Below are positions 59,048 to 63,756 of a stretch of 64,000 nt of DNA, piece by piece (positions within the stretch are counted from its first letter, which is position 1; the number at the start of each line of letters is the position of its first letter). The translations under genes and the position numbers were made by a program. A model generated the notes under the pieces. That model searched no databases and had not been told where the DNA came from. It worked only from the letters and a program-made list of their open reading frames with translations. Origin of the DNA: a virus; the IMG/VR virus record IMGVR_UViG_3300024299_000001, positions 32,001 through 96,000 of that record. One strand, given 5' to 3'.

Positions 59048-59066
59048 CCTCTGGCTATATCAATGG
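59048..59066 (+). promoter_or_regulatory. phage promoter-like motif, copy a (cctctggctatatcaatgg)
   Basis: One of 5 copies of CCTCYGGYYATATNWWYGG. It lies 36 nt upstream of the ATG at 59102. Confidence 0.55.
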
Positions 59067-59101
59067 CACTAACGCCACAATCCCTAGCTAGGAGATTTAT
59101 C

Positions 59102-59359
59102 ATGTTTCAAAATTTAACCCGGGTAATGACCCGTACATCCGATGTCATTGTGGACACAATGGGTGTCCTATCTATTAACATGTCCTCACTTAAAGTCATA
59201 AGCGAAGGCGGTAACGTCAAAGCTGAGGACTTCAAAGCAGCATGTATCGATGATGCTGCTCTTGCCGCTGACAAGCGTAAGTATGACATCACAAAACAAC
59301 GTATTGACCTCGATGCCGATCATCAAGCGCTTCTGGCCACTCCTAAACCTAAGAAATAA
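59102..59359 (+). CDS. hypothetical early protein (85 aa)
   Basis: ATG at 59102 has an AGGAG SD 8 nt upstream. The track start at 59000 would run through the promoter-like motif. Confidence 0.6.
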   Translation: MFQNLTRVMTRTSDVIVDTMGVLSINMSSLKVISEGGNVKAEDFKAACIDDAALAADKRKYDITKQRIDLDADHQALLATPKPKK

Positions 59360-59367
59360 CCCTAACC

Positions 59368-59405
59368 AGCCATACCCAGTCCATCGGGTATGGCTTTACT
59401 CTTTT
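59368..59405 (+). terminator. rho-independent terminator
   Basis: Perfect 10-bp stem agccataccc/gggtatggct with an 8-nt loop, then ttactctttt. Confidence 0.7.
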
Positions 59406-59605
59406 ACTACACAAAGAACACATTAAGATAGTTGCTTTAAGATTGCTGTTTAGCTCCGTGCGTAAGAGGTCGTAATTACCTGTAATAACACTGTTATTTA
59501 AATGTTTACACTGTTTAGCTTGATTTAACATAGTTCATCACTCCGACCATCGGTCACTATACCTACCCGACATACTAACACCTTCAGTCTGTATCAACAC
59601 CTCTA

Positions 59606-59624
59606 CCTCCGGTTATATAAACGG
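59606..59624 (+). promoter_or_regulatory. phage promoter-like motif, copy b (cctccggttatataaacgg), with no ORF downstream
   Basis: The motif matches the consensus, but the next credible ORF is 477 nt away and sits behind another copy of the motif. Confidence 0.5.
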
Positions 59625-60031
59625 ATAGTTGTTATAAAGGCAAGTTCATCCATGTGACATATCTCCGTAACGAGATATATGCACGTTGAACTAGCAAAGC
59701 ATAACAACTGTTCCTTTGCTAGAAAGACATTACCGCCGAACGGCAATGAGCGGTAGTATCATGCATCGAAACTATAAATAAAGCCGACAAGCTTAGTGCA
59801 CTTGGAACTCCCAACGCACTAATTCACACCTTGGACCGTGTGTCTTAAATTACTAACCAGTTGGTTAGTCCATTATTTGATTGACCAGAATGGGGAGGTG
59901 TTTGAAAAGAATATGCATAGCTCGTTGCTTAATAACTGCAAGCATATCACCTAAATCTACATTGGTCTAATCATCTTAAAGCTATAACCTCTGGGCAAGG
60001 TTAAAAGAATACTGCCCATTAACTTGCCCAA
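59625..60031 (+). ncRNA. candidate structured non-coding transcript
   Basis: No ORF longer than 25 aa with an SD. An 83-nt nested hairpin spans 59627-59709, and at least five further perfect 5-8-bp stems follow. Confidence 0.3.
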
Positions 60032-60050
60032 CCTCCGGTTATATCAATGG
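60032..60050 (+). promoter_or_regulatory. phage promoter-like motif, copy c (cctccggttatatcaatgg)
   Basis: Lies 51 nt upstream of the ATG at 60101 and is followed by the 16-nt palindrome gaagtattaatacttc. Confidence 0.55.
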
Positions 60051-60100
60051 AAGTATTAATACTTCTTTAAACTAATTACTACTAATAGGAGCTACCAACC

Positions 60101-60274
60101 ATGCGTAATACTCAAACTGAAGAACTAACCAACTTACTCAATAATATTAATATTACTAACTTTCAAAAACAAATTAAAGCCTTTGATATTACTAAAAATC
60201 AATTCTTCTTTATTGATAAAGATACAGTTATTCATGCTTATTGTATTAAAGGTATTTGGTACTGCAAAGCTTAA
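60101..60274 (+). CDS. hypothetical early protein (57 aa)
   Basis: Hand-translated: MRNTQTEELTNLLNNINITNFQKQIKAFDITKNQFFFIDKDTVIHAYCIKGIWYCKA, with a TAGGAG SD. Confidence 0.55.
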   Translation: MRNTQTEELTNLLNNINITNFQKQIKAFDITKNQFFFIDKDTVIHAYCIKGIWYCKA

Positions 60275-60302
60275 TAATTATACCTTTCTAATTAAATTAT
60301 AA

Positions 60303-60326
60303 GTGTGGGCCTAACCGGGCTCACAC
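60303..60326 (+). other. stem-loop between early genes
   Basis: gtgtgggcc-taaccg-ggctcacac gives 9 bp including one G.T. No T-run follows. Confidence 0.4.
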
Positions 60327-60347
60327 ATTAACCAAAGGAGATAGACC

Positions 60348-61420: not shown

Positions 61421-61439
61421 CCTCCGGCTATATCTTTGG
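61421..61439 (+). promoter_or_regulatory. phage promoter-like motif, copy d (cctccggctatatctttgg)
   Basis: Lies 29 nt upstream of the ATG at 61468. Its 5' half can also pair with gctggagg (61404-11). Confidence 0.55.
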
Positions 61440-61467
61440 GTATTAATATTAAATAAAGGAGATAGTT

Positions 61468-61659
61468 ATGAAACTCTATGAACCCGTTGAACTCGGTGAA
61501 ACCATTAAAGCCGGTTATCAATTTAAACGCCGAGGAGAGAATACCTGGGTTAGCTTAGATCAGTCTTCGATCGATAGCTTTGTTGCAATAACCAAGAAAC
61601 CTATTATCTATGATGCCCTTGATCGTCTTTGTCGTAAACCATTAAAGGAGTTTGAATAA
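61468..61659 (+). CDS. hypothetical early protein
   Basis: 63-aa ORF with an AAGGAG SD. Confidence 0.65.
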   Translation: MKLYEPVELGETIKAGYQFKRRGENTWVSLDQSSIDSFVAITKKPIIYDALDRLCRKPLKEFE

Positions 61660-61745
61660 TGTGCAACAGGTACTGCTCATCCAAAAGAAATTAAAATATC
61701 ATTACAAACAACAATAGTTTAATTATAAATAAAGGAGTAATTATT

Positions 61746-62021
61746 ATGGTTCAGTCATTTTGGGACAGGCCTTCACCGGTTCTTACTCAACAAGAGTTAA
61801 AAAACTGTGAAACAGTACTTGCACAAATAAAAATAGATGGTAAATCTTCTTTATGCCCCATTAATACAAAATGTGAAAGTATTTGCTGTAAACTCTTTCC
61901 AGAATTACCTGACTATACATGTCCTTGTGGGTCTCAGTATAAACCCTTGCATCTTATCCGCGTACTTAATAAGTTAATCAGAGAGAATACTTACCGATTA
62001 AATAAAACAAAAGGAGACTGA
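61746..62021 (+). CDS. hypothetical Cys-rich protein
   Basis: 91-aa ORF with 8 Cys, including 'CESICC' and 'CPCG'. Confidence 0.6.
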   Translation: MVQSFWDRPSPVLTQQELKNCETVLAQIKIDGKSSLCPINTKCESICCKLFPELPDYTCPCGSQYKPLHLIRVLNKLIRENTYRLNKTKGD

Positions 62022-62026
62022 ACCAA

Positions 62027-62218
62027 ATGCCAAAGTATAAAATACATTGGACAGAAATCAGACAAGTCAGTTATCATACTGAAATAATTGCTGATAATAA
62101 GATTAGTGCCCAAAAGATGCTCTTTCATGATACTGATGAAGTTAGATCATCTGTTGAGAAAGTAGATGAAGACTGCTTTGATTATATATCTAAAATTAAA
62201 ATAGAGGAGATCAAATGA
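62027..62218 (+). CDS. hypothetical early protein
   Basis: 63-aa ORF, ATGA-coupled to the next gene. Confidence 0.6.
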   Translation: MPKYKIHWTEIRQVSYHTEIIADNKISAQKMLFHDTDEVRSSVEKVDEDCFDYISKIKIEEIK

Positions 62219-62547
62219 CTATTGAAATTATGAACCTTCGTACTGATCAACCGACTGAAGAGTATGATGTAAAAATTGACCGTACATCTGTTCTTGGTAA
62301 TCCTTACCATATGCTCAATGAAAAACAGAGAGATCTGGTATGTGCTCAGTATGAAGACTATCTGAAGAGTAGAGCAGCAGCGGGTCATCTCATGGAGAAT
62401 AGATCATTTATCAAGGAATTGGAAAGGCTGGTTGAGCTGTATAAAGAACATAAGCAACTCAGATTGTTCTGCTGGTGTGCCCCGAAACGTTGCCACGGTG
62501 CCTCTATTAAGCGCTGGGTACTAAACGAATGCCATAGTACCAGTTAA
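62215..62547 (+). CDS. DUF4326-family protein
   Basis: 'DRTSVLGNPY...QLRLFCWCAPKRCHGASI' matches the DUF4326 pattern (GNPF ... L.C.C.P..CH). Confidence 0.65.
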   Translation: MTIEIMNLRTDQPTEEYDVKIDRTSVLGNPYHMLNEKQRDLVCAQYEDYLKSRAAAGHLMENRSFIKELERLVELYKEHKQLRLFCWCAPKRCHGASIKRWVLNECHSTS

Positions 62548-62599
62548 TCACTTAAGGGTCTTAAATGGCCCTTTATACCTCTTTAAAAAGGAAATAGAT

Positions 62600-63040
62600 A
62601 TGGAATTACAAGATTTTAAAGGTTGGTACTTATTAACCGGTGTAGAATTCTCTACAATCAAACCTTCACGTAATAGTTATTCTTCAGATATTGGGTGTTG
62701 CCGATTTGTATTAAATAATATCACTTATCAGATAACTGAAGATGAAAATGATGGTTATCGTAGTGCCCTAGAAGAGGTTAAAGTTATTGCTGATCATCAA
62801 GTAAAAAATACTTTTGAGCCAGCTTGGGTCAAAGCAGTGTATGTATCAGTAAAAACAAAGGGTGATTACCATTATAACAGGGATTGTGATATTATCCAAT
62901 TTATCGATGTAATAACTAATAAAATAGTATTAGAAATTGGTACTGAAAATACTGATGACTATTACCCAACGTATATTGATAGTTTTAACCCAGAGAATAT
63001 GGCTATAAATGCAAACCTTAAACAGGAAATAGAGATATGA
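62600..63040 (+). CDS. hypothetical protein
   Basis: 146-aa ORF. Confidence 0.65.
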   Translation: MELQDFKGWYLLTGVEFSTIKPSRNSYSSDIGCCRFVLNNITYQITEDENDGYRSALEEVKVIADHQVKNTFEPAWVKAVYVSVKTKGDYHYNRDCDIIQFIDVITNKIVLEIGTENTDDYYPTYIDSFNPENMAINANLKQEIEI

Positions 63041-63489
63041 TGAAAGAATTAATCAAAGAAATCATAACTGATCCAATGAAATTAAAGATACCTTGTCGAC
63101 CAATTGGTAAGCTGCAGAATAATGCTTTGCTTGATGAGATAGTTATGTATCTCACTGATACTTACAAAGCTAACCAGAAGAGATGCTTAGGTCTTGCAGC
63201 TAATCAGATAGGCTACCAGAAGAGAGTTATACTGGTTAGGATAACCCAAGGGTTTGTTATTATGATTAACCCGGTTATTGTACCCAGTCTGATCCATGGT
63301 CGGATTACCAAGAAAGAGAACTGCTTAAGCTTCCCGGGACAGGTATTCAGAGTTAAACGATATAAACGTATCAAAGTTATCTATCATCCGTATACCAAGG
63401 AACCAGTATTACAGACTCATAAATATACTGGTCTTGCTGCTCGTATTGGTCAACATGAGGTTGATCATCTTAATGGTGTACTCAGATGA
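63037..63489 (+). CDS. def: peptide deformylase
   Basis: Motif 1 'GLAANQIGY', motif 2 'ENCLSFPG', motif 3 'QHEVDHLNG'. Confidence 0.85.
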   Translation: MMKELIKEIITDPMKLKIPCRPIGKLQNNALLDEIVMYLTDTYKANQKRCLGLAANQIGYQKRVILVRITQGFVIMINPVIVPSLIHGRITKKENCLSFPGQVFRVKRYKRIKVIYHPYTKEPVLQTHKYTGLAARIGQHEVDHLNGVLR

Positions 63490-63728
63490 CTTTTAAGTGG
63501 GAACCAACTGATTCGGGTGGTATGCGAAGAGTCCGAGTATACAATATTTATGAGGCTATTGATTACATCTGGACAAACCAAGACAATGTAAAAGCTAAAA
63601 GTCATTTGCACAGAGATGCTAAAATGTGGAACATACTCTGTCATATTATTGAGAACAGCCCAGATACTGTATTTACTGTGGAACAGCTTGATAAGTTTTT
63701 ACTGGTTTGTGAAGGAGTATACATTTAA
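63486..63728 (+). CDS. hypothetical protein
   Basis: 80-aa ORF, ATGA-coupled to the deformylase gene. Confidence 0.6.
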   Translation: MTFKWEPTDSGGMRRVRVYNIYEAIDYIWTNQDNVKAKSHLHRDAKMWNILCHIIENSPDTVFTVEQLDKFLLVCEGVYI

Positions 63729-63737
63729 CCAAACAGG

Positions 63738-63756
63738 CCTCCGGCCATATGAACGG
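63738..63756 (+). promoter_or_regulatory. phage promoter-like motif, copy e (cctccggccatatgaacgg)
   Basis: Lies 47 nt upstream of the ATG at 63803 and is followed by the hairpin ggagtac-attac-gtgctcc. Confidence 0.55.

Follow-up and report, generated by a model that had tools for sequence, protein, structure and literature searches.

A repeated 19-nucleotide motif as the probable early promoters of a virion RNA polymerase in a divergent N4-like phage

A 64,000-nucleotide (nt) stretch of viral DNA (positions 32,001 to 96,000 of the IMG/VR record IMGVR_UViG_3300024299_000001; below, the window, with position 1 as its first letter) carries five copies of a 19-nt motif close to its right end. Judged by gene content and order, the window is part of a divergent phage of the Schitoviridae (N4-like phages) whose sequence is circularly permuted. 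The five motifs are probably the early promoters of this phage, read by a virion RNA polymerase (vRNAP) that would be packaged in the particle and injected into the host. Directly observed were the exclusivity of the motif, its strand and position, its sequence anatomy, the presence of a vRNAP gene in the same window, and the parallels with N4, LUZ7 and metagenomic relatives. The putative promoters and their proposed reader are as follows.

59048..59066, + strand: putative early promoter 1; predicted +1 at G59065; gene 1 (59102-59359); variant loop TCT/AGA and a 3-base-pair (bp) template stem
59606..59624, + strand: putative early promoter 2; predicted +1 at G59623; structured transcript of 409 nt (59623-60031) without an open reading frame (ORF)
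60032..60050, + strand: putative early promoter 3; predicted +1 at G60049; ORFs 60101-61032; 4-bp stem AACC/GGTT
61421..61439, + strand: putative early promoter 4; predicted +1 at G61438; ORFs 61468-63728
63738..63756, + strand: putative early promoter 5; predicted +1 at G63755; ORF at 63803; 4-bp stem GGCC/GGCC
27375..38186, − strand: vRNAP gene, 3603 amino acids (phrog_2206, E = 0); proposed reader of the five promoters

Placement and anatomy of the motif and its proposed polymerase

An exact search of the 64-kb window with the degenerate 19-mer CCTCYGGYYATATNWWYGG returned exactly five matches, all on the + strand, starting at 59048, 59606, 60032, 61421 and 63738, the last of them ending at 63756. 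These are the same five positions as in a preliminary description of the sequence, made by eye. No match occurred in 100 dinucleotide-preserving shuffles (expected count 0). Allowing up to three mismatches added a single match, at 1644 on the − strand, where 1.0 was expected by chance. The earlier statement that the window holds no further copies was thus borne out: none was found in the other 59 kb, and the motif was absent from the replication-gene block (1-8000) and from the late genes of the − strand. In an unbiased direct-repeat search of 58600-64000 it came out as the top and largest family (D1/D4). Similarity between the copies extended only about 6 nt 5' of the motif, with two types of flank, TGCCYRR and RAACAGG. 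The 13 other CCTCYGG heptamers in the window were dismissed, having neither the ATAT...GG tail of the motif nor a flanking stem. A perfect 5-bp hairpin, GCGCC-TCT-GGCGC, stands where the leftward block of small ORFs begins (58505-58521, − strand); it shares the heptamer core of the motif but not the ATAT...GG tail.

All five copies are intergenic, and the exact search gave no copy within a coding region or on the other strand. Four copies precede an AGGAG-type Shine-Dalgarno (SD) sequence and an ATG, at 59102, 60101, 61468 and 63803, with 36, 51, 29 and 47 nt between the motif end and the ATG, respectively. The range of 29-51 nt given earlier was therefore right, the first ATG having been placed one base off, at 59103. 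Behind the copy at 59606, some 410 nt hold no credible ORF.

Twelve of the 19 motif positions are invariant and six more are two-fold degenerate. On the coding strand the core reads (R)(R)CC-TCC-GG(Y)(Y), which gives C-GGA-G on the template strand. A 3-nt loop is present in all five copies; it is TCC on the coding strand (GGA on the template strand) in four of them and TCT (AGA) in copy 1. The C:G closing pair and the central G of the template loop are retained in all five. The core is followed 3' by an AT-rich spacer, ATATNWWY, and then by GG at +14/+15 from the loop centre. The preliminary description compared this GG end with a T7-type start; the GG is invariant, and its distance from the loop centre agrees with the 13-14 nt between hairpin centre and G start in LUZ7 (PMC9163698).

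The gene blocks of the window are ordered as in N4, the two genome ends being joined. Genes for the portal, the major head protein and the large terminase occupy the − strand as far as about 56.3 kb, the + strand of 1-8000 carries replication genes (the C-terminus of the DNA polymerase, ligase and helicase), and small + strand ORFs begin at about 59.1 kb. The late block thus ends and the early block starts between about 57 and 59 kb. Within the late, structural block stands a second giant ORF (9960-19787, − strand) of 3275 amino acids, which matched nothing in PHROG or Pfam. The portal was at most 53% identical to that of any GenBank phage, and neither megablast nor blastn matched the early region in 50,697 phage records.

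One close relative was found, the IMG/VR contig IMGVR_UViG_3300022888_000011 (L002, L006 and L007 in our comparisons), which is 97-99% identical to the window and has the same five motif copies. Its segment L007 reaches 10 kb past the window end and includes both N4-type subunits of the second RNA polymerase, RNAPII (phrog_2166 and phrog_2051), and the start of the middle region. No further motif copy was present in these 10 kb, where two matches with three mismatches both fell inside an RNAPII gene and had a broken core. Within the sequence covered, every copy of the motif therefore lies in the block that runs from the genome end to the RNAPII genes. Since the RNAPII genes lie 3' of copy 5 and no other recurring signal was seen, the motif must be read by a polymerase that predates RNAPII.

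The vRNAP gene supplies a suitable candidate. The C-terminal domain of its product matches the structures of N4 vRNAP (gp50) among PDB chains (1.7e-31), and the protein contains no cysteines, like the N4 and LUZ7 enzymes. Its polymerase domain, about residues 1250-2350, was at most 25% identical to that of any sequenced phage, and a search of 5.8 billion proteins gave nothing at E ≤ 1e-5. Residues were mapped with a MAFFT alignment of ten polymerase regions taken from tblastn hits (N4, EK8, Frozen, Axy12, LUZ7, VCO139, XC38, Vibrio 1.026, phi50-12 and the window), which is of low confidence outside the catalytic motifs. The T7-like catalytic residues are kept: D1820, D2189, K1924, Y1932 and R1684 correspond to D559, D951, K670, Y678 and R440 of the N4 mini-vRNAP. 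In N4, W129 stacks on −11G. The column of this residue is aromatic in nine of the ten enzymes and is Phe1304 in the window protein, which fits the retained central G of the loop. The segment with R119 is an insertion found, within this alignment, only in N4, Axy12 and Frozen. Met1681 (codon at 33144-33146, − strand) aligns with K437 of the N4 mini-vRNAP, a contact of the initiating nucleotide that is Lys in the nine other enzymes.

From these observations, and by analogy with N4 and LUZ7, we infer hairpin extrusion, the pairing of enzyme and promoter, and the start site as follows. As the left genome end enters, its negative supercoiling would extrude a mini-hairpin from the template strand, 5'-(R)(G/A)CC-GGA-GG(C/T)(Y)-3', with a stem of 3-4 bp, a GNA-type triloop and a C:G closing pair. 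The vRNAP would bind the loop and the stem, the central G being stacked on an aromatic residue, probably Phe1304. The conserved AT-rich ATATNWWY segment could serve as an easily melted single-stranded ruler, and RNA synthesis would begin 14 nt from the loop centre, where positions 18-19 of the motif are the conserved GG. Five early transcription units would result, running from the first gene to the T7-like, heterodimeric RNAPII.

If so, the motif provides a consensus for the early promoters of a deep-branching, uncultured lineage of Schitoviridae, together with their predicted start sites. It would also widen the range of vRNAP promoters to shorter stems, a longer distance from loop to start, and a different base at the position of the N4 −8. 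The arrangement itself is the one expected for the phage family, and the current picture of how infection starts would be unchanged.

Comparison with known and metagenomic promoters

Early promoters of the N4 type work on single-stranded or supercoiled templates only, with a requirement for gyrase and host SSB. In N4 the promoter hairpin forms on the template strand, and its extrusion requires a G:C closing pair and a loop with a 5' G and a 3' A (PMC4496689). The N4 vRNAP recognises a purine at −11, −10G, −8G and +1C, and initiation uses GTP at both +1 and +2 (PMC4496689). The same work stresses that C(GNA)G mini-hairpins are unusually stable (PMC4496689), and the P2 oligonucleotide contains GAAGC-GGA-GCTTC (PMC13492108). 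The left end of N4 was scanned on the coding strand for stems of at least 4 bp, closed by C...G, around a loop of three pyrimidines. The scan returned exactly P1 (95, GTTGC-TTC-GCAAC), P2 (564) and P3 (4553, just before gp15). Their coding loops are TTC or TCC with a C:G closing pair, and in each the distance from loop centre to GG is 11 nt, in agreement with the published requirements (PMC4496689, PMC13492108).

The window motif resembles the N4 promoters in that several copies lie at the left genome end on the strand of the early genes, each with a GC-rich heptamer around a 3-nt loop and a flanking inverted repeat, in the window with a weak covariation at one pair. The template loop GGA, the C:G closing pair and the central G are shared with P2 and P3, and in both phages an AT-rich spacer leads to a GG, which in the window is the predicted start. 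Conservation is also similar, with 13 of 19 positions invariant in N4 and 12 of 19 in the window. The differences concern first of all the stems, which are 5-7 bp in N4 and 3-4 bp in the window, the window hairpins being predicted to be much weaker. The GG is 11 nt from the loop centre in N4 and 14 nt in the window, whose spacer is 3 nt longer and has the conserved ATAT instead of TTTT or TTAT. The N4 −8G is replaced by C, with G opposite. Finally, N4 has three copies whereas the window has five, one of them with an AGA loop. The −8 position varies in LUZ7 and in other relatives, which indicates that −8G is a property of N4 itself and not of the family.

For LUZ7, ONT-cappable-seq has mapped nine early transcription start sites, with stems of at least 4 bp and 3-nt loops, the early G start lying 13-14 nt from the hairpin centre (PMC9163698). 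Its middle promoters are GC-rich hairpins with loops of 3-4 nt and a G start about 15 nt downstream (PMC9163698). Our own scan of LUZ7, matched to the description in that paper, placed early promoters at 85, 796, 3668 and 3700, with 4-5 bp stems, template loops GAA or GTA and G at +13; those at 3668 and 3700 are 32 nt apart before ORF14, as published (PMC9163698). The window shares with LUZ7 the short stems, a 3-nt GNA template loop closed by C:G, the many copies across the early region and a G start, predicted in the window, at nearly the same distance (13-14 nt from the hairpin centre in LUZ7, GG at +14/+15 in the window). The coding loops differ (TTC/TAC in LUZ7, TCC/TCT in the window), as do the unrelated spacers (TTGGNGNGG in LUZ7, YYATATNWWYGG in the window), and some window copies have only three Watson-Crick pairs.

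Promoters of the T7 group (T7, T3, SP6) are likewise read by a single-subunit T7-like polymerase and consist of an element of about 20 nt with an AT-rich melting segment and a GG start. They are, however, read as duplex without a hairpin and share no sequence with the window motif, which conserves a palindromic core with a 3-nt loop.

Metagenomic phages with an RNAPII 41-46% identical have their own lineage-specific sets of hairpins in the same position. In L008 there are four copies of NNNC-TYC-GNNN-TTGYWATGG with covarying stems CCAC, CCGC and CTGC, and L009 and L011 have three copies each, one of the L011 copies with only three Watson-Crick pairs. In all three sets G lies at +13; stem covariation is clear in the relatives, whose versions include 4-bp stems. 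Together with the 4-5 bp stems of LUZ7, the 3-pair copy of L011 gives a precedent for the short stems of the window. As far as these comparisons indicate, the window motif is a lineage-specific version of an architecture common to the family.

The resemblance to N4 vRNAP promoters proposed in the preliminary description is thus supported by the vRNAP of the window, the N4/LUZ7-like position, the template GGA loop and the GG at +14/+15. Its remark that the stems are shorter than those of N4 was correct; LUZ7 shows that shortness is not peculiar to this phage.

In Axy12 (L097) the first promoter, at 86, has GG at +11, as in N4. Axy12 and N4 also share the segment with W129 and R119, which LUZ7 and the window are without, and the latter two have G at +13 or +14. 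In these four phages the pattern is suggestive of a link between the N-terminal recognition element and the spacing of the start site. The early region of phi50-12 gave no clear promoter set with a simple hairpin filter.

A second class of hairpins, with GC-rich stems of 6-7 bp and a TCC loop and often preceded by 'cag', was present just after the gene of the RNAPII large subunit and further into the middle region, at the following positions.

L007 (the close relative): 11246
L036 (LUZ7): 8244 and 9528
L010: 11475, 16292 and 18542
L011: 11376
L013: 9395

None was found in 1-8000 of the window. By their sequence, these hairpins fit the mapped middle promoters of LUZ7 (PMC9163698) better than the 19-nt motif does.

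Hairpin strength and competing explanations

Several points weigh against the proposed mechanism and its hairpin step. The 3-nt loop noted earlier is present in all copies, but some pairs seen on the coding strand are G.T wobbles, which the template strand turns into A.C mismatches. In copies 1-5 this leaves Watson-Crick stems of 3, 3, 4, 3 and 4 bp, the fourth pair forming in only two of the five copies. Nearest-neighbour DNA folding gave template-strand hairpins of −0.7 to −3.3 kcal/mol, not better than shuffled sequences, and the expected hairpin was the minimum free energy (MFE) structure in only three copies. The N4 promoters P1-P3 reached −3.7 to −7.3 kcal/mol with the same folding, whose parameters leave out the special stability of GNA triloops and C(GNA)G mini-hairpins. 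Copy 1, with its AGA loop, has no 5' G, which in N4 is needed for both extrusion and binding, and the base equivalent to the essential −8G of N4 is C in all five copies. The hairpins are thermodynamically marginal and the evidence for them is not strong; their formation is an inferred step.

The covariation of the outer stem positions from g:c to a:t, pointed out in the preliminary description, was seen at the third pair, which forms in all five copies, three times as G:C and twice as A:T. In the stem as a whole, 85% of the cells were paired, compared with 10-55% in slid registers. An equal score was reached, however, by 29 of 500 column shuffles, and the signal amounts to one base pair in five possibly duplicated copies, which is weak. 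The sole close relative, being 97-99% identical, offers no independent evolutionary test. Two scans of IMG/VR with motif variants recovered only this one true relative, IMGVR_UViG_3300022888_000011; the rest were isolated matches in unrelated contigs, put down to chance. When metagenomes were scanned with the large subunit of RNAPII, the relatives that came up were at most 46% identical, with no intermediate among them that would provide independent covariation. None of these scans revealed a further phage with this motif. On the side of the enzyme, D901 and R904 of the N4 specificity loop are not conserved in the window vRNAP, the alignment being unreliable there. R904, which contacts −8G in N4, aligns with Ser in this low-confidence region, and its loss fits the different base at the −8 equivalent.

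One rival explanation is that the motifs are early promoters of the vRNAP read mainly as linear sequence, in duplex or melted DNA and in the fashion of T7, with no extruded hairpin and with the CC...GG palindrome as a relic or a sequence contact. The strong conservation of the motif (only one position is neither invariant nor two-fold degenerate), short stems with a predicted stability no better than that of shuffled sequence, the breaking of the GNA loop rule by copy 1, the weak covariation and the extreme divergence of the polymerase domain from that of N4 all agree with it. Conservation does not separate the two, since N4 P1-P3 are equally conserved in our own alignment and yet act as hairpins. 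The C-GGA-G loop and closing pair are exactly what extrusion requires in N4, one variable stem position is complementary in all five copies, the 4-bp stems of the relatives clearly covary, and the mapped promoters of LUZ7 have stems of 4-5 bp. Linear recognition is accordingly held to be unlikely, though a serious residual alternative.

A related possibility, unlikely but deserving some weight, is that the divergent vRNAP reads a minimal promoter, its 3-bp stem being too weak for self-extrusion, and is sequence-specific on melted or duplex DNA. The motif would then stand, in evolution, between the N4 hairpin promoters, read by their structure, and the T7 promoters, read by their sequence, and the AGA-loop copy at the genome end would mean that the GNA triloop is dispensable.

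It is very unlikely that the motif acts instead at the level of RNA or as a protein-binding operator in 5' leaders, for example as a processing site or as a CCUCC anti-SD that masks AGGAG in read-through transcripts. All copies are on the sense strand, 29-51 nt before the start codons where these are present, G.U wobbles on the RNA (coding) strand give 4-bp stems in four of the five copies, and CUCC is complementary to the GGAG of the SD. One copy, however, precedes no ORF, and upstream of copy 1 there is only the repeat and terminus region from which it could be transcribed. The terminator-like hairpins between the units argue for limited read-through. No role in RNA suggests itself for the ATAT...YGG tail or for the fixed GG distance, and both match the promoters of N4, LUZ7 and the relatives.

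Middle promoters for the T7-like heterodimer RNAPII are a still less probable identity of the motifs. They would share with the middle promoters of LUZ7 the hairpin with a loop of 3-4 nt and the G start about 15 nt downstream (PMC9163698), but the replication and middle blocks (window 1-8000; L007 beyond 7.6 kb) lack the motif, the first copy precedes the very first gene, and the RNAPII genes themselves belong to the unit behind copy 5. Moreover, middle hairpins of the LUZ7 type have stems of at least 6 bp, and a separate class of this kind exists at L007:11246 and in other relatives. Promoters of the host RNA polymerase, with the TATAT or CATAT of the motif as −10 element, are hardly credible. 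Sigma-70 promoters are built of the hexamers TTGACA (−35) and TATAAT (−10), 16-18 bp apart, and as far as sequence shows the motif is not one of them, as the preliminary description had concluded: a sigma-70 scan placed no site on any copy (24 found in the region, 25.6 expected), the last place of the supposed −10 hexamer is taken in turn by C, A, C, C and G and never by the conserved T, there is neither a −35 box nor a TG extension, and the conserved GC-rich palindrome has no place in such a promoter.

Transcription units and neighbouring features

The units that would be headed by the vRNAP promoters differ in content. Unit 3 includes a RadC-like JAB protein (60496-61032, + strand, 2e-41), and unit 4 a peptide deformylase (63037-63489, + strand, Pfam 1e-29) and a protein with DUF4326, the family of the N4 early gp12. 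The deformylase and the RadC-like protein are unusual cargo for an N4-like early block. In the relative L007 the unit of promoter 5 would extend through both RNAPII subunits. Two units would be closed by hairpins resembling intrinsic terminators.

59368..59395, + strand: intrinsic-terminator-like hairpin closing unit 1
61055..61087, + strand: intrinsic-terminator-like hairpin closing unit 3

A further hairpin of 11 pairs, GGAGG...CCTCC, is found at 61403-61429 (+ strand); its 3' arm is the 5' half of promoter 4 and is followed by ATATCTTT. It could be a terminator of the upstream unit or a competitor of the promoter 4 mini-hairpin.

With G18 of the motif as +1, four of the five predicted RNAs fold with a helix from nt 1: one of 13 bp in the ORF-less transcript, hairpins of 7-8 bp in units 3 and 5, and a helix also in unit 1. 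In these fold predictions the 5'-terminal helices are consistent with a start at G18, without being proof of it.

The predicted RNA of 59623-60031 (+ strand) has an MFE of −113 kcal/mol (z = −4.4), which none of 100 shuffles equalled. It belongs to no Rfam family and had no blastn match in phages; Rfam (whole window at the gathering threshold, 58600-60200 at an E-value threshold) and ARAGORN gave no match. Compared with the close relative it shows only two single-nucleotide differences, while the adjoining gene 1 has many. The predicted fold makes this segment a candidate early non-coding RNA.

About 85 nt 5' of promoter 1 there is an array of 47/48-nt direct repeats (58777-58965), each with a T5-N3-A5+ palindrome, followed by a C-rich tract (58985-59040) with a composition like that of the left end of N4. 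The region 58777-59040 is probably the physical genome terminus or a terminal repeat, joined in the circularly permuted assembly. In N4 and LUZ7 the first early promoter lies inside the direct terminal repeat.

L007 either lacks or has replaced three early ORFs, two of them directly behind promoters 3 and 4; in the window the three occupy 60094-60279, 61470-61718 and 62602-63015. The break-points of the exchange are at the start codons, and the promoter, leader and SD remain 99% identical in L007. From the sequence comparison, these differences look like a cassette-style exchange of genes.

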